A stretch of 64,000 nt of DNA from Acidobacteriota bacterium (GCA_021787565.1 JAJYLT010000016.1:9156-73155), one strand, 5' to 3'. Positions 6,430-54,842 are shown, numbered from the stretch's first letter. The notes: a model not told the origin generated them from the letters alone. A program made the numbers and translations.

Positions 6430-6529
6430 GGCGGTCCCCTATCGCGGTGTCGCGGTGCGGACGTTGTCATGGGATGGATGCGGTGCCGCCCGCTCCACGG
6501 TTTGGGGAAGATCATACACCATCGCGCCG

Positions 6530-6565
6530 CCCCTAAACGCCGAAGGCGGGGGGCTAGCCCCCGCC
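6530..6565 (-). terminator. GC-rich hairpin (GGCGGGGG/CCCCCGCC) 35 bp downstream of pepC, followed by UUCGGCGUUUAGG on the minus strand. Candidate intrinsic terminator.
   Basis: 8-bp perfect stem with a 5-nt loop, read directly from the sequence. The U-tract is weak. Confidence 0.3.
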
Positions 6566-6597
6566 TTGGCGTGTGGCGAGAATGGATCAAGACCGAA

Positions 6598-8019
6598 TCA
6601 GGCGCCGAAGGGGTCCCAGGGGGGGAGGATGTAGGGCTTCTGGCCCACGATCTTCTGGATGGCGGCCGGGACGAAGCGCTTGTCCACGATGATCTCGTAG
6701 ACGTGCTTCTGGAACCAGCCCTGGTCGATGGTGAAGAAGCCCTCCTTGCCGGCCTTCTTGCCCCAGGAGTTCTCGACCTTCCACTTGTCGGGCTTGTCGT
6801 TCTGGATGTCCACGCCGACGAAGACCATGGCGTGGTCCGGGGCGCCGTCGAGGGTCTCCAGGGCGTCCTTCTTGTCCATCGTGAAGTTGAGGCCGAAGAG
6901 GTCGTCGTAATCCTCCGCGTCCTCGGCCCAGAGGCCGGCCTTGCGGTTGCCCTGGGCGCCGGCATCGGCCGCGAACCAGACGACCTGGTCGGCCAGGACG
7001 GAAGCCTTGGCCATGTCGGACATCTCCTCGGAGGTGATGTTGACGGCGCTCAGGTCAGGGTGGTCGGCCATGTCCCGGTCCCAGGCCCACTGGAGCCTTT
7101 CATGCATGGGCTTGCCGGGGTAGTTGACGAAGCACTCGTAGTTATGGAGGTCGCTGCCCACGAACTCGTTGTAGAAGCTCCGGGGCGTGTAGGTCTTGAA
7201 GGGCGAGACCTTGCCGTCTTTTCCCGTGTACCGCCACCGGAAGGTCTGCGGCGGCTCGCCCATGCAGAGGACGAGGATCTTGTAAACGTGGGTGAGGGTC
7301 CCCATTTTGATCTGCTGGAGCTTGGAGGCCGGCTCTCCCTTCCGGACGGCTTCACGCAGCGCGAGCACGCCCTTGCGGACCTCGGTGTTCAGGAGCTTGT
7401 TCATCTGGTCCGTGTGGGAGGCGCTGAAGGTGTCGGGCATGACCTCCTGGGGCACCACGCCGTACTTGTCCACGAGGCCGAGCACGTAATTCCAGTCGCC
7501 CCCGTCGTCCATGGGGCTCTTGAGCAGGTGCATGTTCTTGCGGCTGTCCAGTGGCTCCTTGGACAGCGCGACGGCCAGCTCCAGCGCCCGGTTGGCCCGC
7601 TCCACCTTGTCCCAGAAGTCCTCATAGGCCTGGGAGAGGGTGAAGTCCTTCATGTTGAACTTGTTCATGACTTGCGGGCGCAGGATGTTGAGGCCGGCGA
7701 AGAGCCAGCAGCGGCCGGAGCGCTCCTGGTCCGTGATGGAGCCCGGGTTCTTGATGACGTGGGTGAAGAGGTCGTCGTTGGCGAGAGCCTTCTCCCGGTT
7801 GATCGCCAAGTCGCTGATCATGTGATCGGCCAGCGCGTTCTGGGTGGCCTTCAGGGGCGGAGTCATGGTGAGGGAGGAGTGGATCTCCTGGATGTCCTTG
7901 GCGGAGAGGCCGGCGGCGGGGGTGGGCTCCTCGCCGGGGCCGGGCTTGTACTGGGCGAGGACAGGCAGGGCGGCGAGGGCCGCCAGCAGGGCGGCGGTCT
8001 TGAGGACGGTGTGGGTCAT
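6598..8019 (-). CDS. pepC: Aminopeptidase C / bleomycin hydrolase (C1B peptidase) carrying an N-terminal signal peptide.
   Basis: QERSGRCWLFAGLN catalytic-Cys motif; full-length C1B similarity. Start chosen at MTHTVLKTAALLAALAALPVLAQ (GGAGG 8 nt upstream). The 36-codon ORF extension upstream has no RBS. Confidence 0.85.
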   Translation of the reverse strand: MTHTVLKTAALLAALAALPVLAQYKPGPGEEPTPAAGLSAKDIQEIHSSLTMTPPLKATQNALADHMISDLAINREKALANDDLFTHVIKNPGSITDQERSGRCWLFAGLNILRPQVMNKFNMKDFTLSQAYEDFWDKVERANRALELAVALSKEPLDSRKNMHLLKSPMDDGGDWNYVLGLVDKYGVVPQEVMPDTFSASHTDQMNKLLNTEVRKGVLALREAVRKGEPASKLQQIKMGTLTHVYKILVLCMGEPPQTFRWRYTGKDGKVSPFKTYTPRSFYNEFVGSDLHNYECFVNYPGKPMHERLQWAWDRDMADHPDLSAVNITSEEMSDMAKASVLADQVVWFAADAGAQGNRKAGLWAEDAEDYDDLFGLNFTMDKKDALETLDGAPDHAMVFVGVDIQNDKPDKWKVENSWGKKAGKEGFFTIDQGWFQKHVYEIIVDKRFVPAAIQKIVGQKPYILPPWDPFGA

Positions 8020-35691: not shown

Positions 35692-36879
35692 TCACTCCTC
35701 CTCCCCTCCCCACCGGACGGCGTCCTCTCCGAAGCGCCGGCGGAGCTCATCCAGCGTCCTGTCGAGCTTGCGCTCGCGCGCCCGGTCTCCCACCGAGAAG
35801 AGATCCCCCTGCGCGGGACGCTGCCCCGCTGGCGAGAGATCGAAGGCGGCCATGCCCACCAGGCGCACGGGGATGGTGAGATCGAACTGGCCGAGGAGCA
35901 TCTCCGCCGCCCTCTCCAGCTCCCGGTCCGAGTCGGTCGGACCGGCGAGCGCCATCTGCCGGCTCAGGATGCGGAAGCCGGAGGTCTTGAGCTTGACCCG
36001 CACGGCCCCGGCGAGCAGGCCTTCGGCGCGCAGGTGGCGCCCCACCTTGGCCGCGGCCTTGCGCAGGTGCGGACGGATCGGCCCCTCTCCGACCACGTCC
36101 TTCTCCAGGGTGGTCTCGGCGCCGACGCTCTTGGTCTCCCGTTCGGAGAGAACGGGGCGGTCGTCCACACCCCAGGCCAGCTCGTGAATCCGCCGACCCC
36201 ACTCGCCGAGGCGCCGCTCCAGCCTCTCCGGCGGCGCGTGGGCCACGTCGCCGATGCTCCGAAGGCCCATTCCCTCGAGCTGCTCCCTCGTCTTGGGCCC
36301 GACGCCCCAGAGCCGAGAGACGTCGAGGGGCCAGAGGAAGGCCGTCACCTCCCCGGGCGGCACCACCACCAGCCCGTCCGGCTTCCTGAAATCGCTGGCC
36401 ACCTTCGCGACGAACTTGCAGGGTGCCAGACCCACGGAGATGGTGAGCCCCCGCGTGGCCTCCGAAACCTCCCTCCTGATCCGGCGCCCCATCTCCTCGG
36501 GCGGCCCGAACAGGCCCTCGGCGCCGGTCATGTCCAGGAAGGCCTCGTCCAGACTGAGGGGCTCGACCAGCGGCGAGAAGCGGGCGAAGACCCCCATGAC
36601 CACCTCGGACACGGCCTTGTATCGTTCGAAGTCGGGCGGCAGGACCGCGGCGTGCGGACAGAGGCGGCGGGCCTGGGCCATGGGCATGGCGCTTCGGCAG
36701 CCGAAGGGGCGCGCCTCGTAGCTGGCGGTGGAGACGACGCCCCGGTTGCCCGTGCCCCCCACGAGGAGGGGCTTCCCCCTCAGCTCGGGCCGGTCGCGCT
36801 GCTCCACGGCCGCGAAGAAGGCGTCCATGTCGGCATGGAGGATGACTCTCGGCCAGATTTCCTCTCCCTGCCGCTCCAT
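35692..36879 (-). CDS. dinB: DNA polymerase IV (Y-family).
   Basis: ILHADMDAFFAAVEQRDRPELRGKPLLVGG and SIDEAFLD-type motifs. Full-length DinB similarity, 395 aa. Confidence 0.9.
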   Translation of the reverse strand: MERQGEEIWPRVILHADMDAFFAAVEQRDRPELRGKPLLVGGTGNRGVVSTASYEARPFGCRSAMPMAQARRLCPHAAVLPPDFERYKAVSEVVMGVFARFSPLVEPLSLDEAFLDMTGAEGLFGPPEEMGRRIRREVSEATRGLTISVGLAPCKFVAKVASDFRKPDGLVVVPPGEVTAFLWPLDVSRLWGVGPKTREQLEGMGLRSIGDVAHAPPERLERRLGEWGRRIHELAWGVDDRPVLSERETKSVGAETTLEKDVVGEGPIRPHLRKAAAKVGRHLRAEGLLAGAVRVKLKTSGFRILSRQMALAGPTDSDRELERAAEMLLGQFDLTIPVRLVGMAAFDLSPAGQRPAQGDLFSVGDRARERKLDRTLDELRRRFGEDAVRWGGEEE

Positions 36880-42447: not shown

Positions 42448-44508
42448 TCAGCGGGTATACGAGAAGGGCGCCGAAGCGGTCCCGTCGACGTTCGTCACCA
42501 TGATCTGCACGGCCGTTCCCTTCGGCACCAGGGCCTTCAGGCCCGACCCTTTGGCCACCACTTTGGTGCCGCTGGCCCAGCGAGTGGCGGGGGCCGGACT
42601 TCCGTTGACGGCCACCGAACACCCCGCCTTGAAGCCGCTCCCCGTGATGGTCAACCTGAAGGGGGGCTGAGCGGCCCTCACCGCTCCGATCACCACCGAA
42701 TGGCCGACCGTCAGCGTCTGACTGGAGGTATCGTGGGCACCCGCCGCGTCCGTCACGTCCAGCGTGATGGTGTATACGCCGGGCGGAAAGGTCCTCGTGA
42801 CCGTCTCCCCCTCGGCGGCCTGTCCTCCCAGATCCCACGTGAAGGTATAGGGAGGGGTCCCGTCGGCGCTGCCCACGAAGGTCACCGGCGTGGCATCCGT
42901 GGGCTGGACGGGAGTGTAGTTGAAATCGGCGGTAACCGGTGAAGGGGGTGCGGCGTCCTCCGCGGCGGTGCAGCCGGCCCCCTTGCACGAGGTCAGAGTG
43001 CCAAGGTAGGCGGAGGCGGCACTGAGGAAGTTCGGACTCGCCACTGCCGCCTCGTTGCTCATCTCATCGGGGTCGGGACCGAGGTAGTAGAGCTCCTTCT
43101 CCCCCGTGCTGTACTCCACGTACTTGTAGGCGCTGGTCCTGTACCCCTGGTGGCCCGGCCAGTCGCTGGTCCTGGCCAGGTCCTCAGGATCGGGCGGCTC
43201 GGCCTGCCGGTCCTGGGGAAGAAGACCGGCCTGCTGGGGATGGGGAGCGGGCCCTTTGATCTGTTCGATGAGAACGGACTGCCGCCACGGCGAGGGCGTC
43301 TCTCCCTTCAACAGCGGGACGAGGGACCGGCCGTCGGGCACGTCGTGCATGGTGACGCCGCCCAGCTCCGCGAAGGTCGGGGCCAGGTCCACCTCCTCGG
43401 CAAATTGGTTGATCTGGAGGCCCGCGGGCACGCCCGGACCCACCACCACCAGGGGCACGCGGATGTCCGTCTCGTACGGGGTGTACTTGCCGGCCAGGAA
43501 GCGGTGCTGGCCCATGTGGTAGCCGTTGTCCGAGGAGAAAAAGATGTAGGTATTGCCTAGCAGCCCGTCTGCCGTGAGTTCGTTCACGATGGCCCCCACC
43601 ATGTCGTCCACCGCCTGGAGCGACTGGAGCCTGAGCCGGTACTCGGCGTCGATCTCCTGGATGTCCTGGTCCGTCAGCAGGGGCAGGGATTGCATGTAGG
43701 CCGGCTTGCCCGTCATGTCGGCCTCGTTGAAGGAAGGGGTGCGGGGCGCCTGGGCGCCGGGAAACAGGTTGGCGTCCCTCGGGGCCGGGGTGCTCGGCCG
43801 GTGGGGCGCGAAGGGGGTGAGGTGCATGAAAAAGGCCGGATGGCTGGGATCCTGGGCCATCTGGTGGACGAAGGCGACGGCCTTGGCCGACATGACGTCG
43901 GTCAGGTAGTCCGAAGGGGCGCTTCCGAAGCTCACCACGGTGCCGTTTTCGTTGAGCGAGTAGTTGTACTCGCCGTAGGGATCTCCGCTCACGGGGCTGT
44001 ACCACTCGTCCCAGCCGGGCGGGATGTAGGTCTGGCTCGCGGTGGCGGGGTACCCGTTGAGGTACTTCCCGAAGAAGAAGGTCTTATAGCCGGCCCTCTG
44101 CAGGGCCGTGGCCACGGTGTGGCTCTCCAGGGAGTCGGCGTAGGCTTTCTGGAAACCACCATCCGGCGGATTGTTGGTCCAAATCTTGGTGTTGTGAGGG
44201 TACTGGCCACGCAAGATCGCCGTCCTCGATGGACAGCAGAGGGAGAGAGGCACGAAGTAATCGTCGAAGGTGGCCCCCTGGTCCTCCAGGAGCGCCTTCA
44301 CGTTCTGCATGTACTCCATGGAGTGGAGCATGAGGTCCTGGTCGTCCGTCAGGATGAAGATGATGTTGGGCTTCTGCGGCTCGTGCCGCCCCGCCGTCTG
44401 GCATGGGGTGGTCTGCGCCGAGGCGGGAAGCGCCGCCGCGAGGAGGGTGGCGAGGATCAGGCCTGTGGTCTTCAGGTAGGGCAGGGCGTGGCGCGCCTTC
44501 AAGGGCAT
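42448..44508 (-). CDS. Secreted sulfatase (formylglycine-dependent, S1 family) with C-terminal PKD/Ig-like domains.
   Basis: Signal peptide. LSLCCPSRTAILRGQY (C-x-P-x-R FGly motif) and GKYLNGY. C-terminal ~200 aa have PKD-like repeats (PYTFTWDLGG ... VYTITLDVTDAAG). Confidence 0.85.
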   Translation of the reverse strand: MPLKARHALPYLKTTGLILATLLAAALPASAQTTPCQTAGRHEPQKPNIIFILTDDQDLMLHSMEYMQNVKALLEDQGATFDDYFVPLSLCCPSRTAILRGQYPHNTKIWTNNPPDGGFQKAYADSLESHTVATALQRAGYKTFFFGKYLNGYPATASQTYIPPGWDEWYSPVSGDPYGEYNYSLNENGTVVSFGSAPSDYLTDVMSAKAVAFVHQMAQDPSHPAFFMHLTPFAPHRPSTPAPRDANLFPGAQAPRTPSFNEADMTGKPAYMQSLPLLTDQDIQEIDAEYRLRLQSLQAVDDMVGAIVNELTADGLLGNTYIFFSSDNGYHMGQHRFLAGKYTPYETDIRVPLVVVGPGVPAGLQINQFAEEVDLAPTFAELGGVTMHDVPDGRSLVPLLKGETPSPWRQSVLIEQIKGPAPHPQQAGLLPQDRQAEPPDPEDLARTSDWPGHQGYRTSAYKYVEYSTGEKELYYLGPDPDEMSNEAAVASPNFLSAASAYLGTLTSCKGAGCTAAEDAAPPSPVTADFNYTPVQPTDATPVTFVGSADGTPPYTFTWDLGGQAAEGETVTRTFPPGVYTITLDVTDAAGAHDTSSQTLTVGHSVVIGAVRAAQPPFRLTITGSGFKAGCSVAVNGSPAPATRWASGTKVVAKGSGLKALVPKGTAVQIMVTNVDGTASAPFSYTR

Positions 44509-44667
44509 CTCCTAGAGCGCAGAATTTGCGGGGGGAACCGGGAACCGGGGGGATCCTCGTCTCTCCATCAAAATAGGGACGCGGCACGCGCCGCCTCCCA
44601 CGTCGTCCCCCTCCCTCCTCACGGGATTTTACTTCCGGCCGGGTGGTCCGTCAAAGGAGCGGGGTGA

Positions 44668-44816
44668 CCCAAATTCCGCGATGGAATCGCACTCGTAGCG
44701 CCGCCCCCGGCGCGACGGACCGTACGCGGGCACCGCATCCTGGTCGCAGGGTCACCCGGTTCGCGGCGAGGCGCCGCTCCTACGCAGGCGTTGAGCCGCT
44801 ATCGCGGAATTGGGGG
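44668..44816 (+). repeat. MITE-like repeat copy 5 (carries a small internal deletion, GTAGGAGCG to GTAGCG).
   Basis: CCCAAATTCCGCGATGGAATCGCACTCGTAGCGCCGCCCCCGGCGCGACGG ... GCCGCTATCGCGGAATTGGGGGG. Sits 16 bp from the dnaE2 stop. Confidence 0.8.
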
Positions 44817-44832
44817 GTGAGTGCCCGGGCCC

Positions 44833-47800
44833 CTACGCCGCCCCCTCGGCGGTGGCCTCCTCTCGCACTGGCTTGGGCACGACGACGCCGCGGATGGCCC
44901 AGGCGCGGGAGACGGCGAGCGTGAGGCCGCCGCGGTCGTCCTCCGCCCTGCCCTCCACCACCAGCGGTCTGCCGGACGTGATGAGCTCGCCGAAAGCCTG
45001 GTAGGCGCGGGGGAAGAAGACCAGCTCCGTGAGGCCGGTGGGATCCTCGAGAGTGGCGAAGGCCATGCCCTCCTTCGTCTTGCGGGTGGAGATGCGCTTG
45101 TAGGTGATGACTTGGCCCCACACGCGCGCCGTCTCCCCCGCCTTCACGGCCAGGCTCATCGCGTGCGTGTAGCCCCGCCCCGCCGCCCACTCCAGCAGAG
45201 GCGTCAGCGGATGCGCGGTCGTCGCGTAACCGAGAGTGCGCACTTCACCGGCAAGGGTCTCGGCTAGGGAGAGGGATGTTGAGTCGGCGTGAATCAGAGA
45301 GCCATGGAAACCCAGGGAAGAAACTCTTCTCTCGCCGCGTCTCTGGCTCTCTGGTTCCCTGTTTCTCATCGTGCTGACGCCAGCCTCACCAGACCGCAAC
45401 AGGCCCAACAATACGCCTCGATCGAACCCGAAGTCATCGCACGCTCCCGCGCGGACGAGGACCTCCACTTCCGCGAGGGTGAAGCGGCGGCGCAGGCGGG
45501 AGCAGAGGTCGGCGAAGGAGCGGTAGGGCCCCTCGCCGCGTTCCTCGAAGAGCGCGTCCAGGGCCGAGGGCCGAAGGCCGCGCAGGGTGAAGAAGCCGCA
45601 GCGCAGCAGTCTCCCCTTCCCCGCGAAGTCGCTGCCTGAGGCGTTCACGTCGGGCGGCAGGATCTCCATTCCCCAGCGCCGCGCCTCCTCCACGTAGGCC
45701 GCCGTGCCGTAGAAGCCGCCCTGGTTGTTCACGAGCGCCGCGAAGAACTCGGCGGGGTGGTGGGCCTTGAGGTAGGCCACCTGGTAGGAGAGCTGGGCGA
45801 AGGAGGCGCTGTGGGCCTTGCAGAAGGCGTAGCCCGCGAAGGACTTGATCTGCGCCCAGAGCTGGGCCAGCACGAGAGCGCCGATGCCCCGCTCGCGGCC
45901 CTTCTCGAAGAAGGAGCCCGTGAGCGACTCCATCTCGGCGTGACTCCGGTACTTGCCGCTCATGGTCCGGCGCAGCGAGTCCGCCTCGGCCAGGGAGAGC
46001 CCCACGAACTCGTGGGCCACGCGGATCACGTCCTCCTGGTAGACCATGACGCCGAAGGTTTCCCTGAGGATGGGTTCCAGTTCCGGCGCGGCGTACTGTG
46101 CGCTCTCTTCGCCCAGCCGGCGCTTCACGTAGGCCTCCATCATGCCCGACTCAGAAACGCCGGGCCGGATGATGGAGGAGACCGCCGTCAGGTCCGGGAA
46201 GGTGCGCGTCTTGAGGCGCTGGAGCAGCAGGCGCATGCCCGGCGACTCGATGTAGAAGCAGCCCATGCTGCGGCCCTGTGAGATGACGGCGTTGGTCTCC
46301 GGATCATCGTAGGTCCGCTCCGGCGGGAAGATGGGCGGCGCCTGGCCCGTGCGGTCCTTCACCGCCGCCACCGCGTCCACGAGGACGCCGAGAGACCGGT
46401 TGCCCAGTAGGTCGATCTTCACCAGGCCCAGCTCCTCCACGTCAACCATGTCGCACTGCGTGATGGCCACGCCCTTGGCGGCGCGTTCCAGGGACAGCCG
46501 GCGCGTGAGCGGGACCGGCGAGACCACCACGCCGCCGCAGTGCACCGAGAGGTGGCGCGGGAAGCCGTCGATCCAGCGCGCCACCTCCAGCAGGTCCTGC
46601 CACGGCCGCTCCTTGAGGGGCGCCCGGCGTGACTCGGGCCTCGCCGCCAGAGCCTCTGTGAAGTGCTCGAAGGAGGTGTGCGGGATGGCGCGGGCGATGA
46701 CGCCGATCTCCTCCTCGGGCACGCTCAGGGCCTTGCCCACCTCCCTAAAGCCCGAGCGCGCGGAGAAGGTGTTGTGCGTGGCGATCATGCAGACGTTCTC
46801 GTCGCCGTAGGTGTCGTAGACGTGCCGGATGACGTGGTCGCGCTCGCGCCAGGAGAAGTCCAGGTCGATGTCGGGCGGGTTCCTGCGGCCGGGGTTCAGG
46901 AAGCGCTCGAAGTAGAGGCCCTCGGCCACCGGGTCCACGTGGGTCATGAAGAGGCAGTAGGAGACGAGGCTCGAGGCGCCCGAGCCGCGGCCGATATTGG
47001 GGATGCCCTGGTCGCGGGCGAAGCGGGCGATGTCCTCCACCACCAGGAAGTAGCCCGCGAAGCCCAGGCGCACGATGACCTCCAGCTCCCGCTCCAGCCG
47101 TTCGATGTACGCCATGGAGACGTTGCGCACCCGCCGAGCCAGGCCCGCGTAGGCCAGGGCGCGCAGCTTGCCCGCCTCGGTCTCGCCCGCGGGGATGGGC
47201 GGATGGGGCAGGAGCCAGTCGCCCAGCGGCAGTGTAAGGTCACAGGAGGCCGCCAGCTCCCCCGCCGCGTCCAGCGCCGTGGCGCGGGCGCCCCCGCCCG
47301 CGAACCGCCGCTCCGCCTCCTCCGGTGGAAGCAGGTACTCCCCCGGCCCCGCCTCGGGCCGCAGGTGTTTCGCCGCCCGCAGGACCCGGTGGATGGCGTA
47401 CCCCGAGGGACCCGGGAAGAAGGCCGGCGGCGCGGCGATGCAGGGCAGCTTGAGCCAATCCGCCACGGCACGGGCGTCCGCGTCGGCTTTGGAGTCACCC
47501 GAGAGGCGCGCGAAGAGGCCCCCTTCCCCACCGCCCGCTCCCGGAGGACTTCTCGCTCCCGCCTTCTTGAGCGCGTAGAGCAGGGGCACGTCTGACGCCA
47601 CGAGCGCTACGTGGCCTCCTTCCGTGGCCGCCGCGCACTCCCTCACCCGGTCGAAGCGGTCCGGATCGAGGTTGCGGCGCGTGATGAGGCGGCAGAGACG
47701 GGAGTAGCCCTCGCTGTCCCGTGCAAAGGCAAAAAGAGAGGCCCTTGCGCGGGGAGCTGGAGAGCTGGAGATCTGGAGATCTGAAGAAGAAGGAAGATGC

Positions 47801-48168
47801 CTTGAAGGAGCAAGTTCCCCTGATTGCTCCCTTTTGCCAGATGGGCCGTTCCACGGCTCTTTTCTCCCCAGTTCGCCAGTTCGCCAGCTCTCCAGCTCGC
47901 TCTTTTCCGCCCCCGCGGCTCGCCAGCTCCTCAGCTCCCCAGCTCGCTCTCTATAACCGCCTCCCGTGATCTCCGCCCCCAGAACCGGCTTAATACCCGC
48001 CGCCCTAGCCGCCTTATAGAACCGCACCGCGGCGTAGAGCCCGTCGCGGTCGCAGAGGCCCGCGGCGGGATAGCCCAACTCGGCGCACGCCGCCGCCAGC
48101 GTCTCGGGTAGCATGGCCCCGGAGTAGAACGTGAAAGCGGTCCGGTTGACGAGCGGCACGAACGGCAT
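44833..48168 (-). CDS. dnaE2: Error-prone DNA polymerase III alpha subunit DnaE2 (ImuC), carrying a ~65-aa in-frame low-complexity insertion in the N-terminal PHP domain.
   Basis: 1111 aa. PHP, polymerase core, (HhH)2 and OB-fold regions are recognisable (GYFLVVEDIARFARDQGI; DIDLDF; CGGVVVSP; FAGYAFCKAHSASFAQLSYQ). Residues ~67-145 (GGGYRERAGELRSWRAAGAEKSELESWRTGELGRKEPWNGPSGKREQSGELAPSRHLPSSSDLQISSSPAPRARAS) are inserted between GAEIT and LFAFARDSEGY. Confidence 0.85.
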   Translation of the reverse strand: MPFVPLVNRTAFTFYSGAMLPETLAAACAELGYPAAGLCDRDGLYAAVRFYKAARAAGIKPVLGAEITGGGYRERAGELRSWRAAGAEKSELESWRTGELGRKEPWNGPSGKREQSGELAPSRHLPSSSDLQISSSPAPRARASLFAFARDSEGYSRLCRLITRRNLDPDRFDRVRECAAATEGGHVALVASDVPLLYALKKAGARSPPGAGGGEGGLFARLSGDSKADADARAVADWLKLPCIAAPPAFFPGPSGYAIHRVLRAAKHLRPEAGPGEYLLPPEEAERRFAGGGARATALDAAGELAASCDLTLPLGDWLLPHPPIPAGETEAGKLRALAYAGLARRVRNVSMAYIERLERELEVIVRLGFAGYFLVVEDIARFARDQGIPNIGRGSGASSLVSYCLFMTHVDPVAEGLYFERFLNPGRRNPPDIDLDFSWRERDHVIRHVYDTYGDENVCMIATHNTFSARSGFREVGKALSVPEEEIGVIARAIPHTSFEHFTEALAARPESRRAPLKERPWQDLLEVARWIDGFPRHLSVHCGGVVVSPVPLTRRLSLERAAKGVAITQCDMVDVEELGLVKIDLLGNRSLGVLVDAVAAVKDRTGQAPPIFPPERTYDDPETNAVISQGRSMGCFYIESPGMRLLLQRLKTRTFPDLTAVSSIIRPGVSESGMMEAYVKRRLGEESAQYAAPELEPILRETFGVMVYQEDVIRVAHEFVGLSLAEADSLRRTMSGKYRSHAEMESLTGSFFEKGRERGIGALVLAQLWAQIKSFAGYAFCKAHSASFAQLSYQVAYLKAHHPAEFFAALVNNQGGFYGTAAYVEEARRWGMEILPPDVNASGSDFAGKGRLLRCGFFTLRGLRPSALDALFEERGEGPYRSFADLCSRLRRRFTLAEVEVLVRAGACDDFGFDRGVLLGLLRSGEAGVSTMRNREPESQRRGERRVSSLGFHGSLIHADSTSLSLAETLAGEVRTLGYATTAHPLTPLLEWAAGRGYTHAMSLAVKAGETARVWGQVITYKRISTRKTKEGMAFATLEDPTGLTELVFFPRAYQAFGELITSGRPLVVEGRAEDDRGGLTLAVSRAWAIRGVVVPKPVREEATAEGAA
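47735..47935. repeat. Inverted-repeat, lower-GC insertion (~200 bp) lying in frame inside dnaE2. The left arm GGAGCTGGAGAGCTGGAGATCTGGAGATCTGA is complementary to the right arm CCAGTTCGCCAGTTCGCCAGCTCTCCAGCTCGC.
   Basis: Read directly from the sequence. It contains the short direct repeats CTGGAGAT x2 and CCAGTTCGCCAG x2, and its arms are mutually reverse-complementary. Local GC drops well below the ~70% background. It corresponds exactly to the extra residues in the DnaE2 PHP domain. Confidence 0.45.
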
Positions 48169-48217
48169 GGCGAACCCGAAGGAGGCGGAGACCAGCGACT
48201 ACTATCCGCACCCATAT

Positions 48218-48237
48218 TATAGTCATACATGACTATA
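48218..48237. promoter_or_regulatory. 20-bp palindrome TATAGTCATACATGACTATA, 50-70 bp upstream of the dnaE2 start. Candidate SOS (LexA-like repressor) operator.
   Basis: Perfect 9-bp arms (TATAGTCAT / ATGACTATA) in an AT-rich patch. A near-identical palindrome lies upstream of the LexA-like gene at 52768-52787. Confidence 0.45.
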
Positions 48238-48419
48238 CATTCAAGAGAAAAAGAGGCGGGAGAAATCCACTCCCCCGCCTATAAGGGGTTAGGGCTTCTT
48301 CACGGCCGAAGCCGGCTTTTATGGGTCAAAGCGGCCGCAGGCCGCTCGTCGCGGCCTTCGCCATAGGGCGACCATGGGGATAGAACCACCATGCCCCCCG
48401 CCGGACGGGCACGAAACCT

Positions 48420-50987
48420 TTACCACGTGAGCACCACGTCGTTGCCGCTCCTGGCCACGCGGAGCGTGTCTCCGGCTCCGTCAACGTTGTAAAAGAAGAG
48501 ATCCGGGCCAGAAGCCGCGCCGGCATCCGTGTAGGTGTTGCCCAGGGCGGCACCAAGCGGCGGGAGGCTTGAAGCCACCGTGCCCCGGCGGATCAGATTG
48601 GCGAAGAAGGCTAGAGAGCTGTCCAGGGTGAGCTTGCCGTAGCCCCAGAAATCGTTCGGCGTGGTCCCCGTGAAACCGTCCGAGCGAGCCCCCGCCTGAA
48701 GATCCCCTCGGATCTGGCCAAGCGTGAGCGCGGGGTCGGCGCCGAGAAGAATGGCCGCCGCCCCAGAGACCTGGGCGCAGGAGAAGCTCGTCCCCGATTC
48801 GGCGATGTGCTGCCTGCTCGGGGTCTCCTGGACGATGTACTGGCTCTGCGGGGAGCCGGTGTACCAGCCGGCGCCGAGTTGGCTGGAGAGCGAGGTCACG
48901 ACCACCTCCCCGGGCGCGGTGAGGTTGGGCTTCTGGTCGTTCACCACGGCGTTGCCCTCCGAAATCCCTCGCAGAGGCCCGTGCGAAGAATAGGAGGCCA
49001 GGGCGCCGAGCGTTTCGCTGGAGGACTGTGGCGTTCCGTTTTGATCCACCCACGACGTCTTGGTGACGTGGGCGCCCACGGCGATGACGTCGTGGGCTGC
49101 CGCCGGGCCGTTGATCATCTTCGCGTCGTCCCCGCCGAGGTAGCGGTTCGTGCAGTCCTCCGTGGCGGTAGCGAAGTAGCCGTAGGTCCAATTCGTCATG
49201 TAGCCGTCCACGTGGGCCCCCGAAGCCGTACCGCCGTTTTGCCGAAACTGAACGATGATGGGCATGGGGCCGGACCAGCCCGGCGGCACGTAGTAGAGGT
49301 CTCCGCCATAGGCGGACTCCGCGGTCGTCGCGTAGTCGTAGGCCACGAAAGCATACTGTAGATTGCCGTTGTGGTAATCGGTCATGGGGTTTTCGAGGCC
49401 GAGGTAGACTCCGAAAGTGCTGGATGAACCAGCCGTCGTGGGATCGCCGACGAAGGAGTCCCGCCAAGACTTCCGGGAAATCGAGTAGTAGCCGCTGTTG
49501 GCCGAGGAGATGGCCACCCATCCCGTACTGAAATAGGTCCAGCTAGCGTAGTAGTCCACCGGGATCCAAGCCCGGAGCTCGATGTTCGCCGATGTGGGGA
49601 AGTAGAACTCCATGTTCATGGGCTGGCCCGCGTAGCCGTTGCCGTTCCAGTCGTAGGAGTAGGCGGTGATATTCGTCGCGTCGGTCTGGTTGCTACCGGA
49701 CGGTGTCGTCATGGCGCAGATGTTTCCATCCGCGTGCATGAGGTTGCCCGTGGCGTTGCCCGCGGCGGCCGAGAGCGCGATCCCGGCGCTCGAATCGGAA
49801 ACCCCAAGGTTGTTATCGATCCAGTAGGAGAGGTCGTCCCCGCCATCGTGCGGCCCCCAGTCCGAGCCGAAGCTCATGTTGATGGAGACGGGCTTCCCCA
49901 GGCTGGCGGCCTTGTCCTTGATGTAGCGAAGGCCGTCCTCGATGTGGGCATCGGAGAGGTCCGATTTGACCAGGATGATGTCCGCTTGATCGGCCTGCCC
50001 GTCGTAGGTTCCACCCGTTGAACTGCCGTTACCCGCCGCCACCCCCGTCGTGGAGGTGCCGTGTCCCCACGTGGAGGCGTCGTTGTCCTGTTCCGTGCAC
50101 GCCCCGGCGTTGATCTGGCCAGCCGTCCATTCGGCTCCATACGTGTAGCCGGCGGGAGGCGTTCCCGTCGCCGTCTGGTCCCAGATGAAGAGGATGCGCG
50201 TCGTACCGTCGGGGTTCTTGAAATCTTGGTGGCTCCAGTCGATGCCCGTGTCGATGGAGGCGTAGATCGCCCCGCTTCCATGGAGCTTCCAGTCGTTGTG
50301 CACGGCTGTCGTATGCGTGTCCGGCAGGGCTTGATCCATGTAAGGCTGGTAGAGTACCGGGGCGCGGACCCTGGTCACGCTCGGATTCTCGATCAGGGAG
50401 CGGATCTGCGAAATGGGCACCACGAGAAGGGCTGAATGCTCGGGGAACCACTGGCCTTCGAAGCGGGCGCCCAGCCGGCCAGCCACCTCCGGCAGTAAGG
50501 CCGGCGTGTCCGATTCCACCTGGACGGCGATGGCCGGAGTGCCCTGAACCTCCTCGAAGCGAAACAGGCGATTGAGCCCCTTGTAACCGGATTGGGGGGA
50601 GCCTTCCCCGGTTTCGCTCCGGGGGCCCATCTTGGCCAAACGGCGCGCGTCCAGGGCCAGCGTTGCCTTGGGCAGGCTCGCCGGGACGGACATCTGGGCA
50701 TCCTGCTTCGGATCCGCGGCCTGCAGCGGCACGGTCTTCGGGGCGAGGAGCATCTGGAGCCGCGCGTCCAGTTTCTCCTGCTCATTGGCCTTCAAAGGCC
50801 GGCTGGCCACTGAGTTCCTCAGGGCCGCCAAGGCCTCGGCCGTTTCCTGAAAGGAGGGGATGGTCCGCGGGGGCTCGGCCCACAGCACCACTCCTATCAA
50901 GAAGAGCGTTCCCGCCCATCCCGCCAACCGGGCCACCGAGCCGGCTCGGCTCGTTCTGCTTCGCGGCGTGTTCACTGGCTTGGTCAT
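48420..50987 (-). CDS. Secreted subtilisin-like serine peptidase (S8 family) with large insertions.
   Basis: Signal anchor GTLFLIGVVLWA. Catalytic triad motifs SIDTGIDWSHQDF (Asp), WGHGTSTTGVAAG (His) and ESGTSFSCAQVSGAAAIL (Ser). GGGGAG RBS. Confidence 0.8.
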   Translation of the reverse strand: MTKPVNTPRSRTSRAGSVARLAGWAGTLFLIGVVLWAEPPRTIPSFQETAEALAALRNSVASRPLKANEQEKLDARLQMLLAPKTVPLQAADPKQDAQMSVPASLPKATLALDARRLAKMGPRSETGEGSPQSGYKGLNRLFRFEEVQGTPAIAVQVESDTPALLPEVAGRLGARFEGQWFPEHSALLVVPISQIRSLIENPSVTRVRAPVLYQPYMDQALPDTHTTAVHNDWKLHGSGAIYASIDTGIDWSHQDFKNPDGTTRILFIWDQTATGTPPAGYTYGAEWTAGQINAGACTEQDNDASTWGHGTSTTGVAAGNGSSTGGTYDGQADQADIILVKSDLSDAHIEDGLRYIKDKAASLGKPVSINMSFGSDWGPHDGGDDLSYWIDNNLGVSDSSAGIALSAAAGNATGNLMHADGNICAMTTPSGSNQTDATNITAYSYDWNGNGYAGQPMNMEFYFPTSANIELRAWIPVDYYASWTYFSTGWVAISSANSGYYSISRKSWRDSFVGDPTTAGSSSTFGVYLGLENPMTDYHNGNLQYAFVAYDYATTAESAYGGDLYYVPPGWSGPMPIIVQFRQNGGTASGAHVDGYMTNWTYGYFATATEDCTNRYLGGDDAKMINGPAAAHDVIAVGAHVTKTSWVDQNGTPQSSSETLGALASYSSHGPLRGISEGNAVVNDQKPNLTAPGEVVVTSLSSQLGAGWYTGSPQSQYIVQETPSRQHIAESGTSFSCAQVSGAAAILLGADPALTLGQIRGDLQAGARSDGFTGTTPNDFWGYGKLTLDSSLAFFANLIRRGTVASSLPPLGAALGNTYTDAGAASGPDLFFYNVDGAGDTLRVARSGNDVVLTW

Positions 50988-51210
50988 GTTCGTCTCCCCA
51001 ACCTAAAATGAGTGGCATGCCAGCGTGTGTATGCTCGTCCCCACGCTCTCGGTTCCGCTCTAGCAAGAAATTTGCCAGGGATGAGGGCCGGCCGGCCCAT
51101 GGCGAAGTGCTGACCTGCATGGTTTTTTCTTGGGGATGTGCGCTGACCGCCCTCAATGGAGCCTCCGGATTGATTCGGCCAGGTAACATCCGTGGTTCGC
51201 CACGGTGACA

Positions 51211-52107
51211 TCAACCGGCGCCGGCGAACAGGCTCCGCTGAAACACCGTGTCGCTTACGGTCTCTAGGTGCGGGTAGAGAGCGATCAGCTCCTGAGGGAT
51301 GTGCTGCTTTTGGCCCGTGAGGGCAAACTGGACCTGGAATGCGTTGGCCACGGCCTTGCCTCGAAAATGGTTATTGAAGATGAGGATCACCTCCTTGGCC
51401 ACGGTGGAGGCCTCCCGGACGGCGTTCACCCACGGGGCCAATTCGGCGGCGCTGTAGAGGTAGTTGTACCGCTCGTCCCGGCCCGCCCCCTCGGTGAACC
51501 AGGCGGCGGCGTTTCGGCCGTGGAAGCGGAAGTAGGCGAGATCCGAGGTTACGGCGCAGGTGGGTCCGAGGCAGTGGGCCAGGGCCGGCTGATCGATGTT
51601 GCAGAAGGCCACGCCGCACTCCCGCAGCATCCGCAGCACATCCTTGGAACCCCACGAGGCGTGGCGCAGCTCCACCGCCAGCGGATAGGCGGAGAAGCGG
51701 CTGGCGAGGGCCAGCAGGGTTTTCCGGTTCTCTTCCGTGTTCTTGAAGGACCAGGGCCACTGGATGAGCACGGCGGACAGACGGTGGAAACGCACCAGGG
51801 GTTCCACCGCCCGGTGGAAGGCCCGCTCATCTACCAGAGAGGCTTTGCGCGTATGGGTGAACCCCTGGAAGAGCTTCACCGTGAAGCGGAAATCGGGGAA
51901 GTCAGACGCCTTCCGCACCCACTCGCCCGTGGCGATGGGATCGGGGATCCGGTAGAAGGTGCTGTCCACCTCCACCACGCCGAGGAGCCCCGCGAGGAAG
52001 GCCAGGGGGACGAAGTCGCGGCCGACCCTCGGCGGGTACACCACCCCTTTCCAGTCGGGGTATGTCCAGCCGGCTACGCCGATGCGGAGGGAGGTTTGTT
52101 CCTTCAC
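51211..52107 (-). CDS. DUF72 (YecE-like) family protein.
   Basis: 298 aa from GTG. IGVAGWTYPDWKGVVYP ... FYRIPDP ... VELRHASW are DUF72 hallmarks. Begins 48 bp downstream of the LexA-like gene on the same strand. Confidence 0.8.
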   Translation of the reverse strand: MKEQTSLRIGVAGWTYPDWKGVVYPPRVGRDFVPLAFLAGLLGVVEVDSTFYRIPDPIATGEWVRKASDFPDFRFTVKLFQGFTHTRKASLVDERAFHRAVEPLVRFHRLSAVLIQWPWSFKNTEENRKTLLALASRFSAYPLAVELRHASWGSKDVLRMLRECGVAFCNIDQPALAHCLGPTCAVTSDLAYFRFHGRNAAAWFTEGAGRDERYNYLYSAAELAPWVNAVREASTVAKEVILIFNNHFRGKAVANAFQVQFALTGQKQHIPQELIALYPHLETVSDTVFQRSLFAGAG

Positions 52108-52155
52108 GGCAGTACCTCAATCACCATCCCACCCCTATAAGATAGGGACAGATTT

Positions 52156-52746
52156 CTATCTTTCCCTCACCCACACGATCTTGTAGGCGAAACGGACATC
52201 CTGCGGCTCGACGACCACCGGCGGATAGAGGGGGTTCACCGATTCGAGGATGATCCGCCCGCCCGCCTCCCGGTAGCGCTTCACGTACTTCTCGCCGGTC
52301 ATGAGGCCTATCACGGCGTAGTCGCCGCTGACGGGCCTCTTGCGCGTGTCCACCATGACCACCTGGCCGTCCTCGTACTTGGGCACCATGCTGTCCCCCG
52401 CCACCTCCACGCCGAAGCCGTTGGGGTCCGTGAACTGCGGCGGGCGGGGCAGGAAGTACATGCCGCCGCCCGCGGGGTAGCCCTGGTCGGTGAACTCCAC
52501 CGCCTCCCCCGCGGAGGCGAAGGCCACTACCGGCACCTCCTCGGCCAGGGAGTTCTCCTGGGTGATCATGGAGAGGGGCACCTCCATGGCTTCGGCGATG
52601 GCTTCCAGGGAGCGGAGCGAGGGGGTGATGCGCCCCTTCTCGATGCGCGCGTAGTTCGGGGGGCTCCATCCCAGGCGCCGCGCCACCTCCGCCTGGGTCA
52701 ACCCGAGAGACTTCCGGACCGATACGAGCTTCTTCGCAAAATCCAT
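52156..52746 (-). CDS. LexA-like transcriptional repressor with an XRE-type HTH N-terminus and an S24 self-cleaving peptidase C-terminus.
   Basis: 197 aa from MDFAKKLVSVRKSLGLTQAEVARRLGWSPPNYARIEKG (HTH_XRE). C-terminal S24 domain with GDSM (Ser nucleophile) and GEKYVKRY (Lys). Its own upstream region carries the same palindrome as dnaE2. Confidence 0.75.
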   Translation of the reverse strand: MDFAKKLVSVRKSLGLTQAEVARRLGWSPPNYARIEKGRITPSLRSLEAIAEAMEVPLSMITQENSLAEEVPVVAFASAGEAVEFTDQGYPAGGGMYFLPRPPQFTDPNGFGVEVAGDSMVPKYEDGQVVMVDTRKRPVSGDYAVIGLMTGEKYVKRYREAGGRIILESVNPLYPPVVVEPQDVRFAYKIVWVRER

Positions 52747-52767
52747 GACCAGCCTCCGCACCATAAT

Positions 52768-52787
52768 AATAGTCAGGCATGACCATA
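52768..52787. promoter_or_regulatory. Imperfect palindrome AATAGTCAGGCATGACCATA, 22-41 bp upstream of the LexA-like start. Candidate autoregulatory operator.
   Basis: Matches the dnaE2 palindrome at 16/20 positions (consensus TATAGTCAT-N2-ATGACTATA) and sits in a local AT-rich patch (ACCATAATAATAGTCAGGCATGACCATAAAG). Confidence 0.45.
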
Positions 52788-52997
52788 AAGTCAAGTGAAA
52801 GCCCCACGACCGGTGCGGATTGGCTCCCGGCAGCCCCGATCGGATCTGCGTCTACGAGATCAGCTGGAGAGGGCCGGCGCTGAGCGCCGGTCCTCCTGAG
52901 GGCTCCACCGAAGGCCCGCTCACGAAGGATCTTAGGTTGCGAAGCCCCGACGCCGCTGTACGTAGCGCAGCCGTTCCGGCCCTCGTTCCATCTCCCG

Positions 52998-54842
52998 TCA
53001 GTGCAGAGCGGCCAGAACATCCACGAGGACGGGCATCTTGCGGCCGCCGGAGGTGAGGTAGGCGCCGGCGGCGAACTCCTTCAGGCCTCGCAGGAGTTCC
53101 TGCGCGAGCTCCACGCCGAGGGCCATCTGGTCCTCCCTCCTATCGAGGCGCTCGAACCGATCCATGACGGTCCTGGGGACGGTCATCCCGGGCACCTCGT
53201 TGGCTAGGTACAGGGCCTGTTTCAGGCTGGCGATGGGCAGCACGCCCGGCAGGATCACCACGGGCAGGCCCTTCAGCCGGTCAAGAAACCGGCGGACGGG
53301 CTCCAGGTCGAAGACGGGCTGGCTCATGGCAAAGACCGCGCCGGCATCCAGCCGCTCCCTGAGCTTGGCGATCTCCTTCTCGGGGTCCTGGGCCGTGAGA
53401 TTCACCCCCACACCCACGGCGAATTGGGTGGGGGTACCCGTGGGGTGGTCCGAGAAATCCAGCCCCCGGTTCAACGAGGCGATGATCTTCACGAGGCCCA
53501 CCACGTTGACGTCGTTCACCGAGGTGGCCAAGGGGAAGTCGCCGTGGGCCGTCGGATCGCCGGAGAGGGCCAGGATCCCCTCCACGCCCAGGAGCGAGGC
53601 GCCCAGGAGTTCGGATTGCAGGGCCAGCAGGTTCCTGTCCCGGCAGGTCATGTGCAGGATGGTGGGCAGGCCGGTCTCCTGCTGGACGAAATGGGCCAGC
53701 GCCATGGAGGAGACGCGCACCCGGGCCATGGGGTTGTCCGCGATATCCACCGCGGACGACCCGGCCTGCTTGAGCAGGCGGGCCACCTCCACCGCCTCGC
53801 GCGCGTCGGGCCCCTTGGGTGGATTGATCTCGCAGGTCACCGCGAAGCCGTTCCGCAGACGGGCGAAGAAGCCTCCGCCCTGCGGCGGTGCCGGCGCGAC
53901 GGCCGGCGCGTCCTCGATCAGGAGCCATCCCTCCGGGCTGCCCTGGCGCTTCACGGGCGGCCTCTTCCGGATGATCTGCGCCACCGCCCGGATGGTCTCC
54001 GGCGTCGTGCCGCAGCAACCGCCCACGATGTTCACGCCGAGATCCACGTATCGCTTGATGTAGTTCGCCACGTACTCGGGGCTGGAGAGGTAGTGGATCT
54101 GGCCGTCCACCTCGGCGGGATAGCCGGCGTTGGGCATGACCACCAGCGGGTGGTCCACGCTCTGGCAGATCTCCTCCACCAGGGGAAGCGTGTCGGCGGG
54201 GCCCACCGAACAGTTGATGCCCACCACGTCGGCGCCCTGCTTGGCCAAACGCCTGCACCCTTCGATGGGCGTGTCGCCGAAGAAGGTCCTCCCCTCCCGG
54301 TTGAAGGTGAGCGAGGCCAGGATGGGGATTTCGGGCGCCACCTCCCTGCACGCGTCGATGAAGAAGCAGGTCTCCAGCGCCGACTGCTGGGTCTCCAGGA
54401 TGAAGAGGTCGGGTTCGGCCGAGGCCAGGGCCGTCACCTGCTCCCGGCAGATCTCGCGCGCCGCCTCCTCTTCCATGTCTCCGTAAGGCTTCAGCATCAC
54501 CTTGAGGGGGCCGATGGAAGCGCCCACCCACACGGGAGCTCCGTGGGCCGCTCGCCTGGCGATCTCCACGCCGCGGGCATTGATCTCCTCCAGCCGCCCC
54601 TCCAGGTCGTAGACACGCAGGCCCAGGCGGTTGGCCTTGAAGGTGTTGGTGGTCAGGATCTGGGCCCCGGCGTGGACATACTCCCGGTGGAGGGCGAAGA
54701 CGAGGTCCGCCTGGCTGAGGTTGGCCTCCTCCAGACAGCGGTTCCTCGGGATGCCGCGGAGGTGCAGGACGGTGCCCATGGCGCCGTCGGCCAGGATCAC
54801 CGATTCCTTCATCCAGCTCGCCAGCGATTCGCGTTTGGTCAC
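52998..54842 (-). CDS. Bifunctional homocysteine S-methyltransferase-domain / 5,10-methylenetetrahydrofolate reductase (MetF) fusion protein.
   Basis: N-terminal Hcy-binding domain (ILADGAMGT ... GGCCGTTPE). C-terminal MetF-like TIM barrel (CEINPPKG ... TCRDRN ... FDLEPVRRFLDRL). 614 aa; GTG start with GGAGG 8 nt upstream. Confidence 0.8.
   Translation of the reverse strand: MTKRESLASWMKESVILADGAMGTVLHLRGIPRNRCLEEANLSQADLVFALHREYVHAGAQILTTNTFKANRLGLRVYDLEGRLEEINARGVEIARRAAHGAPVWVGASIGPLKVMLKPYGDMEEEAAREICREQVTALASAEPDLFILETQQSALETCFFIDACREVAPEIPILASLTFNREGRTFFGDTPIEGCRRLAKQGADVVGINCSVGPADTLPLVEEICQSVDHPLVVMPNAGYPAEVDGQIHYLSSPEYVANYIKRYVDLGVNIVGGCCGTTPETIRAVAQIIRKRPPVKRQGSPEGWLLIEDAPAVAPAPPQGGGFFARLRNGFAVTCEINPPKGPDAREAVEVARLLKQAGSSAVDIADNPMARVRVSSMALAHFVQQETGLPTILHMTCRDRNLLALQSELLGASLLGVEGILALSGDPTAHGDFPLATSVNDVNVVGLVKIIASLNRGLDFSDHPTGTPTQFAVGVGVNLTAQDPEKEIAKLRERLDAGAVFAMSQPVFDLEPVRRFLDRLKGLPVVILPGVLPIASLKQALYLANEVPGMTVPRTVMDRFERLDRREDQMALGVELAQELLRGLKEFAAGAYLTSGGRKMPVLVDVLAALH

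Follow-up and report, generated by a model that had tools for sequence, protein, structure and literature searches.

A 64,000-nucleotide stretch of DNA from an Acidobacteriota bacterium (the window; GCA_021787565.1, JAJYLT010000016.1:9156-73155) carries two related 20-bp palindromes, TATAGTCATACATGACTATA at positions 48218 to 48237 and AATAGTCAGGCATGACCATA at positions 52768 to 52787. The first lies 50 bp from the start codon of a minus-strand gene encoding a DnaE2-type C-family DNA polymerase (44833-48168; 1,111 amino acids [aa]), and the second lies 22 bp from the start codon of a minus-strand gene encoding a repressor with an XRE-type helix-turn-helix (HTH) and an S24 peptidase domain (52156-52746; 196 aa). 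We consider it likely that these palindromes are the operators of a local, autoregulated, self-contained, damage-inducible cassette formed by the repressor, a DUF72 protein, and the polymerase. An original prediction, made from the sequence alone, had put both sites forward as a candidate lineage-specific SOS box, and the positions, the distances to the start codons, and the agreement at 16 of 20 positions that it gave were all reproduced.

Two palindromes within promoters of the window

The two palindromes are mismatched at 4 of 20 positions, and a search of the 64 kb allowing up to three mismatches returned just these two sites. No match occurred in 100 dinucleotide shuffles, and the chance expectation is 0. 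On the minus strand, each palindrome takes up the 17-nt spacer of a sigma-70-type promoter and extends into its -10 element. The promoter of the repressor gene (52766-52794) consists of TTGACT (-35; 52794-52789) and TATTAT (-10; 52771-52766), while that of the polymerase gene (48216-48244) consists of TTGAAT (48244-48239) and TATAAT (48221-48216), with each scoring 10 of 12 matches. Between positions 44600 and 53100, three promoter-like sites reach this score, compared with 0.8 expected; two are the palindrome promoters, and the third, at 44654->44626, has no palindrome and is located downstream of the polymerase gene. The AT-rich islands that had been remarked upon around the palindromes are thus real and can be identified as promoters, because sigma-70-like elements enclose both sites. 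On the minus strand, the candidate operator of the repressor gene (O-rep) reads TATGGTCATGCCTGACTATT, with the core GGTCA-N4-TGACT, and that of the polymerase gene (O-pol) is the perfect palindrome TATAGTCATGTATGACTATA.

Conservation of the operator region and of gene order

To follow these sites through related genomes, one genome per species was scanned, yielding 23 orthologous loci (related loci and contigs are referred to by L numbers). All are from Acidobacteriota, labeled Thermoanaerobaculia, Thermoanaerobaculaceae, Thermoanaerobaculum aquaticum, and, in one case, "Aminicenantes." The repressor itself has 86 close homologues sharing 63 to 96% identity, and the named ones are from Acidobacteriota metagenome-assembled genomes (MAGs). 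In the orthologous loci and in at least 17 metagenome contigs, the repressor gene is preceded by a conserved motif, AT(G/A)GTCA-N4-TGAC(T/C)AT. In 19 high-GC loci it takes the form cTTGACaa-(A/G)TGGTCA-N4-TGACTATAtt, the promoter consensus of the orthologs being cTTGACaa/TATATT. O-rep is kept in 19 genome loci and at least 7 metagenome contigs, and O-pol is kept in 9 genome loci and at least 10 metagenome contigs. Every locus for which upstream sequence is present carries a GTCA-N4-TGAC site, and this core was found in 30 of 30 genome-derived sites, an invariance that is partly built into the way the sites were collected; the central 4 nt vary. As a sequence pattern, fixed half-sites around a variable center are typical of a site bound by a dimeric HTH protein.

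Footprinting of 46 nonredundant promoters, comprising 26 of repressor genes and 20 of polymerase genes with metagenome contigs included, revealed that conservation is confined to the -35 element, the palindrome with the -10 element, a block proximal to the ribosome-binding site, and one extra half-site, while the flanks diverge. This conservation in approximately 46 promoters argues for the predicted existence of an uncharacterized operator/repressor pair with autoregulation and control of the polymerase. The operator motif follows the repressor-DUF72-polymerase cassette across 64 to 99% protein identity, and a duplication of the repressor promoter is the probable origin of the polymerase promoter. 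Two variants of the site were recognized. A MAG assigned to T. aquaticum (L022) has the cassette with the variant box ATTGTCA-N4-TGACAAT. T. aquaticum is a named species that is assumed to be cultured. Between the two operator-variant groups, the recognition-helix region of the repressor reads SPPNYARIE or DPSNLVRIE, which amounts to weak covariation only.

The extra half-site is found at a fixed distance from the palindrome. In 21 of 26 repressor promoters and 13 of 20 polymerase promoters, RGTCR follows the left half-site at a distance of 34 ± 1 bp (background, 0.003 per position), with an offset of 37 to 38 in the polymerase promoters. In seven of the 20 polymerase promoters, the right half-site is preceded, at 34 bp, by a mirrored YGACY; these mirrored copies are in L004 to L006, L008, L023, L169, and L239. 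In the window, the auxiliary element of the repressor gene (GGTCATGG; 52746-52752, minus strand) is a lone half-site, CTGGTCA, that follows the left half-site at 34 bp and overlaps the ATG start codon (52746-52744). The corresponding region of the polymerase gene, ATAGTAGTCG (48196-48205, minus strand), is situated in the 5' untranslated region (UTR). As the auxiliary half-site is noncoding in polymerase promoters and in L008, coding constraint is not the explanation for its conservation. No conserved partner half-site was found beside it in the 46 promoters, and a second full operator at this position was rejected on that ground. An RNA element was also considered and rejected: an Rfam search of positions 44000 to 54000 returned no RNA family, and the right half-site, being upstream of the likely transcription start, cannot pair with the auxiliary half-site in RNA to form a hairpin. 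We regard the auxiliary half-site as a part of the operator region, where it may serve cooperative binding or act as a roadblock.

In all 23 orthologous loci, the repressor gene is directly followed by the gene for DUF72, a YecE/TM1631-like TIM barrel (51211-52107 in the window, minus strand), and the two are probably cotranscribed. Basal low-GC members (L019 to L022) have repressor, DUF72, and polymerase in a tight operon (121-729, 711-1631, and 1640-4711 in L021; 9980-10576, 10580-11485, and 11494-14607 in L019) behind a single upstream palindrome, with two adjacent operator sites in L019. Across the high-GC clade, 0.7 to 5 kb of other DNA, sometimes including an S8 peptidase gene, splits DUF72 from the polymerase, and the separated polymerase has its own operator-promoter (the window, L002 to L006, L008, L009, L018, and L023). 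The Peptidase_S8 gene of the window (48420-50987, minus strand; a subtilase of 855 aa) has counterparts in this position only in L012, L013, and L018 and is a lineage-specific passenger rather than a constant part of the cassette. Since other genomes have a different insert or none, the gap between DUF72 and the polymerase appears to be an insertion hot spot. Directly upstream of the polymerase promoter, an intrinsic-terminator-like hairpin with an 11-bp stem and a T run (48254-48280, minus strand), which is also present in L002, L003, and L018, would insulate the polymerase gene from read-through.

The window has the context of a chromosomal core, with genes for methionine synthase, LpxB, a SurA-like protein, and glycogen and trehalose enzymes. 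The cassette is flanked by metH, an MTHFR-fusion gene, lpxB, surA, and a sulfatase gene in a synteny that is kept across many MAGs, and extension along the contig beyond the window yielded only genes of glycogen metabolism. The window was found to lack phage genes as well as recA, lexA, and uvr genes. A dinB gene is present (35692-36879, minus strand); it encodes a true Pol IV, begins approximately 30 nt downstream of a major facilitator superfamily (MFS) gene, and has neither an operator, as had been predicted, nor a separate promoter. It shows no visible sign of damage control in this genome. Because it is a bona fide Pol IV gene that lacks the palindrome and shares an operon with the MFS gene, it was rejected both as a second target and as an ImuB counterpart.

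The repressor, the polymerase, and the DUF72 protein

The domains predicted for the two main proteins were recovered with Pfam, namely HTH_3 and Peptidase_S24 in the repressor and the Pol III alpha domain set in the polymerase. In the repressor, HTH_3 covers residues 10 to 59 and Peptidase_S24 covers residues 72 to 186 (E = 3e-17); matches to HTH_3, HTH_31, and HTH_19 together fall within residues 5 to 63, and Pfam gave no match to LexA_DNA_bind. Against TIGR00498 the protein scored 33 bits (cut-off, 110.95), aligning only over residues 53 to 191. Ala79-Gly80, Ser119 (within GDSM), and Lys156 are invariant or nearly so in 32 homologues and, judged from the sequence, constitute a putative self-cleavage site (Ala79-Gly80) and a putative autoprotease dyad (Ser119/Lys156). 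An AlphaFold model (mean predicted local distance difference test score, 85.9) has five N-terminal helices and no wing, followed by a linker of low confidence around the cleavage site and then by an S24 domain rich in beta structure. Using Foldseek, the top matches of the model were full-length lambda CI (3bdn) and LexA; its C-terminal domain matched CI in the RecA complex 8gmu with a template modeling (TM) score of 0.81, and its N-terminal part matched XRE proteins, such as C.BclI and DdrO.

In sequence, the repressor has its best full-length relatives beyond the clade among CI-like proteins of viral contigs (30% identity; 69 bits), and it shares 27 to 29% identity with the canonical LexA proteins of out-group cassettes, the latter over the C-terminal domain only (30 to 42 bits). 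No close homologues were found in viral contigs, where the best match had at most 37% identity. The repressor is thus a CI-type XRE-HTH/S24 protein and not a canonical LexA. It has the hallmarks of S24 proteins, with the Ala-Gly site, the Ser/Lys dyad, and a C-terminal fold like that of LexA and CI, and it resembles the co-opted CI-type class (HdiR, FddR, and "non-canonical LexA") in its domains, its chromosomal location, and its conserved palindromes. A paralogous S24 protein with 49% identity and an N terminus not recognized as HTH_3 is encoded at L024 (1-1023), in the same MAG as L015. Its gene adjoins proS and is accompanied by a divergent HTH gene and an upstream direct repeat, TGCAACYATAG, in two copies; with this other repeat and the proS neighbor, it was rejected as a member of the system.

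The N terminus of the polymerase, PLVNRTAFTFYSGA, replaces the HxH motif, such that the metal ligands of the PHP domain are substituted (MPFVPLVNRTAFTFYSGA), while the catalytic DnaE motifs PDIDLDF and DLLG are kept. The OB fold spans residues 1025 to 1088 and the protein ends at residue 1111, just past it, leaving no tau-binding domain; alignments to DnaE1 structures end near chain residues 1067 to 1131. The next relatives outside the clade share 41 to 45% identity, and the contexts of seven of them were read. Five were lexA-IMS-polymerase cassettes, in which LexA has LexA_DNA_bind and S24 domains and IMS is a Y-family polymerase, and two were stand-alone; the lexA promoters of L294 and L297 have a CTGT-N8-ACAG LexA box between their -35 and -10 elements. 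The degenerate PHP domain, the lack of a tau-binding tail, and the relatives in lexA-PolY-dnaE2 cassettes together identify the polymerase as DnaE2 type. Judged on the gene content of the cassette, it fits the DnaE2B class that lacks ImuA and ImuB (PMC12926913). Inside the degenerate PHP domain, residues ~70 to 150 form an insertion of low complexity with many Glu, Arg, Ser, Gly, and Pro residues; it is absent from the basal orthologues (1,023 to 1,037 aa), which align only from residue ~153 of the window protein.

The cassette includes no imuA, imuB, or PolY gene, and that slot is held by DUF72. The DUF72 protein scored 176 bits in Pfam (PF01904; cut-off, 25.3) and matched 1vpq (TM1631) with an E value of 7e-44. 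Members of the family have been predicted to act as EndoIV/UVDE-like DNA enzymes (PMC3828134), and the family has been recorded near damage-inducible translesion synthesis operons with PolB2 (PMC11791011); neither DUF72 nor a repressor-DUF72-polymerase cassette is mentioned in PMC12926913. In the cassette, DUF72 may be a lesion endonuclease or another lesion-processing partner.

Regulon, competing explanations, and known systems

To search for further targets, a position weight matrix (PWM) of the operator (24 bits; hit threshold, ≥12 bits) was run over the window and L001 to L024 (~410 kb), and no additional site was found. Metagenomes were scanned with a strict promoter-plus-operator pattern, which provides a sample and not a census. 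Among the matches listed, 17 of 17 on cassette-bearing contigs of Thermoanaerobaculia type were at cassette promoters (7 repressor and 10 polymerase). The prediction of a lineage-specific SOS box is therefore upheld in its first half, as the operator is conserved in the clade, and is not supported in its second, no extra site having appeared in the ~410 kb; the label "SOS box" is not yet justified. A polymerase-type operator-promoter (TTGCAA..CTGGTCAC..ATGACTATATT) was also detected in L190 (5471-5499) and L246, which have no assigned taxon and a GC content of 57 to 58%. The L246 site is approximately 30 nt upstream of an open reading frame (ORF) at 5049-6698 (minus strand), and the downstream gene in L190 and L246 encodes a secreted beta-propeller protein (DUF5122/Rax2-like) and is located beside M4 and M3 peptidase genes. 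It is a possible noncassette target, the sole candidate among the matches listed.

The motif is also present outside this group. Genes encoding PadR-family regulators of 172 to 192 aa (39 to 67% GC) are preceded by ATAGTCA-N4-TGACTAT, usually in two tandem copies of which one lies in the -35/-10 spacer and the other ~21 bp downstream (L188, L191, L211, L222, L223, L229, L231 [6502-6560], L232, L234, L257, L259, L262, L265, and L274), and TetR-like genes in L157 and L185 are preceded by the variant TTGGTCA-N4-TGACTAT. Such PadR/TetR promoters number at least ~20 among the matches listed, and it looks as though different regulator families had convergently adopted a single operator sequence. An identical 29-mer, TTGTACATATAGTCAATCTTGACTATATT, with a conserved stretch of ~60 nt after it, was found in at least ~45 gut and bioreactor metagenome loci of 35 to 46% GC (for example, L162 [6036-6064], L176, L193, and L203); these loci gave no match in Rfam, and the 300 nt downstream contained no ORF. 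In viral contigs, a broad motif scan gave chance or unrelated matches among those listed.

Under the favored explanation, a dimer of the CI-type repressor would sit on the operator at both promoters. As the operator lies in the spacer and over the -10 element, bound repressor would exclude RNA polymerase, and repression would extend to the repressor-DUF72 operon as well as to the DnaE2-type polymerase with its separate promoter. On the analogy of LexA and lambda CI, DNA damage would lead to filaments of RecA on single-stranded DNA, which would bring about self-cleavage of the repressor at Ala79-Gly80 and derepression of both promoters. DUF72 would then process lesions, and the polymerase would perform translesion or mutagenic synthesis, until fresh repressor restored repression and autoregulation reset the switch.

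Several observations weigh against this explanation. The same palindrome precedes regulator genes of the PadR family, and two that are TetR-like, in unrelated lineages, so that the motif alone does not name its binding protein. Sites were collected with a pattern that demanded the GTCA-N4-TGAC core, which makes the invariance of the core partly a matter of construction. In L020 and L022, the palindrome ATTGTCA-N4-TGACAAT is shifted and overlaps the -35 element; thus, the position of the operator is not fixed. A simple one-dimer model does not account for the conserved lone auxiliary half-site. The polymerase falls below both NCBIfam cut-offs, with 656 bits against the DnaE1 model NF004226 (cut-off, 1002) and 576 bits against the error-prone model NF004225 (cut-off, 939), the sole model that aligns from residue 2. 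Lastly, we infer binding, cleavage, and induction of the repressor system by analogy.

Whether the CI-type repressor is instead the master damage regulator, with the palindrome as a global SOS box that also precedes recA, uvrA, and other repair genes, was weighed as well. CI-type S24 repressors of Bacteroidetes took over whole SOS networks (PMC8565304), the window and the ±10 kb around the 24 related loci showed no canonical LexA, and the scans covered a small part of any one genome. Yet the PWM revealed no extra site in ~410 kb, dinB is without one, the matches listed for related contigs were confined to cassette promoters with only L190 and L246 as possible extras, out-group polymerases reside in self-contained lexA cassettes, and local S24 units are well known (PMC13148647); we regard a global box as rather unlikely. 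A more far-reaching proposal is that Thermoanaerobaculia and Aminicenantes lost canonical LexA and that the CI-type repressor, with the ATRGTCA-N4-TGACYAT box and auxiliary half-sites, became the SOS master in a further independent takeover by a phage-type protein, the DUF72 nuclease having taken over from the Y-family subunit the role of obligate DnaE2 partner in a new mutasome or repair module. This proposal is speculative, and we would give it a small chance of being correct.

A transcription factor encoded elsewhere, for example of the PadR family, might bind the palindrome while the S24 protein recognizes another site or none, as suggested by the often tandem ATAGTCA-N4-TGACTAT upstream of many PadR-family genes in unrelated metagenome contigs. 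However, the promoter of the S24 repressor gene always contains the motif, as expected of autoregulation, and the motif tracks the cassette over the whole range of protein identity; the PadR loci show a like arrangement, with the motif in the promoter of the PadR gene itself, and this fits a convergent use by the two families. No PadR homologue was found in the window or the 24 loci, and PadR was rejected as the binder because none is near any cassette; an outside factor of any kind is improbable. That the locus is a prophage or mobile-element immunity module, with the repressor as phage CI and the palindromes as phage operators, might be thought from the JGI label "phage repressor protein C" on repressor homologues and from the greater closeness of the repressor to viral-contig CI-like proteins (30%, 69 bits) than to canonical LexA. 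Such a module is extremely unlikely, as the flanks are housekeeping genes in conserved synteny with no integrase or phage structural genes, the best viral relatives have no more than 37% identity, and the GC content is uniform; a prophage origin was rejected on the gene context and the lack of close viral homologues. Equally slight is the chance that no regulator is involved and that a promoter sequence (spacer and -10 context) has been kept by descent or duplication. The right half-site does overlap the -10 element (TGACTATAtt), making its conservation partly promoter driven, and the polymerase promoter is probably a duplicate. Sigma-70 spacers, however, are normally not constrained in sequence, the motif has dyad symmetry about a variable 4-nt center, and the left half-site is equally invariant despite having no role in the promoter; moreover, the motif survives the register shift to the -35 element in L020 and L022, and a third half-site is kept in the 5' UTR.

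The repressor-DUF72-DnaE2 cassette is the Thermoanaerobaculia/Aminicenantes counterpart of the lexA-PolY-dnaE2 cassettes, with a CI-type repressor in place of LexA and DUF72 in place of PolY. In those cassettes (PolY being imuB or dinB-like), which include DnaE2B-PolY-RecA modules, the order of S24 repressor, accessory gene, and DnaE2-type polymerase is the same (PMC3919608, citing Abella 2004 and Erill 2006; PMC12926913). They are likewise autoregulated and self-contained, with the operator in the -35/-10 spacer, and their polymerases are the nearest out-group relatives (41 to 45%). The present cassette differs in having an XRE/CI-type HTH rather than the LexA winged helix, DUF72 rather than a Y-family (IMS) protein, ATRGTCA-N4-TGACYAT rather than CTGT-N8-ACAG, and no imuA or imuB. 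If the favored explanation is true, this would be a clean non-orthologous replacement of the regulator and the accessory gene in an otherwise conserved mutagenesis cassette, and it would provide the strongest genomic-context clue yet for a function of DUF72 in DNA damage processing with a DnaE2 polymerase. The ~24-bit operator could then be used for regulon mapping in any Thermoanaerobaculia genome, and the predictions should be directly testable in T. aquaticum.

As had been predicted, the operator is unlike known LexA boxes, having no match among the published LexA and non-canonical motifs that we found (GGA-N5-TCC, CTAA-N5-TTAG, and GTG-N11-CAC; PMC8565304 and PMC13148647). The non-canonical LexA proteins of Bacteroidetes (PMC8565304) are similar to the repressor in being chromosomal proteins with a CI-like HTH and an S24 domain, autoregulated via a fixed-spacer palindrome, and in controlling error-prone polymerases, including PolY-dnaE2 operons. 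They differ in their motifs (GGA-N5-TCC and CTAA-N5-TTAG) and in governing a broad canonical SOS regulon supported by electrophoretic mobility shift assay and expression data; the extra C-terminal helix described for these proteins is not evident in the repressor model. HdiR of Lactococcus and Streptococcus (hdiR-umuC cassette) and FddR of Francisella are, like the repressor, phage-type S24 proteins acting as local damage regulators of themselves and neighboring mutagenesis genes (PMC13148647). Their lineages and motifs are different, FddR having GTG-N11-CAC and divergently transcribed targets (PMC13148647), whereas the targets here are codirectional and a second operator copy serves the detached polymerase gene. 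If the favored explanation is true, a clade of Acidobacteriota with many uncultured members would join the few lineages listed so far (Streptococcaceae, Bacteroidetes, and Francisella) in having a phage-type S24 repressor over error-prone synthesis. With lambda CI and Escherichia coli LexA (3bdn, 8gmu, 8trg, and 1jhh), the repressor model suggests a common fold of the S24 domain and cleavage region and a common Ala-Gly and Ser/Lys chemistry, and CI also has a helical XRE-type N terminus. Identity to these proteins is 20 to 25%, the repressor is not a prophage immunity repressor, and each promoter has one full operator and a lone half-site, unlike the OR1-3 arrays of lambda. Self-contained S24-repressor units over error-prone polymerases and the co-option of phage-type repressors (HdiR, Bacteroidetes non-canonical LexA, and FddR) are thus already known, whereas, as far as the literature was searched, the lineage, the motif, the duplicated operator-promoter for a detached polymerase, the auxiliary half-site, and the exchange of PolY for DUF72 are new.

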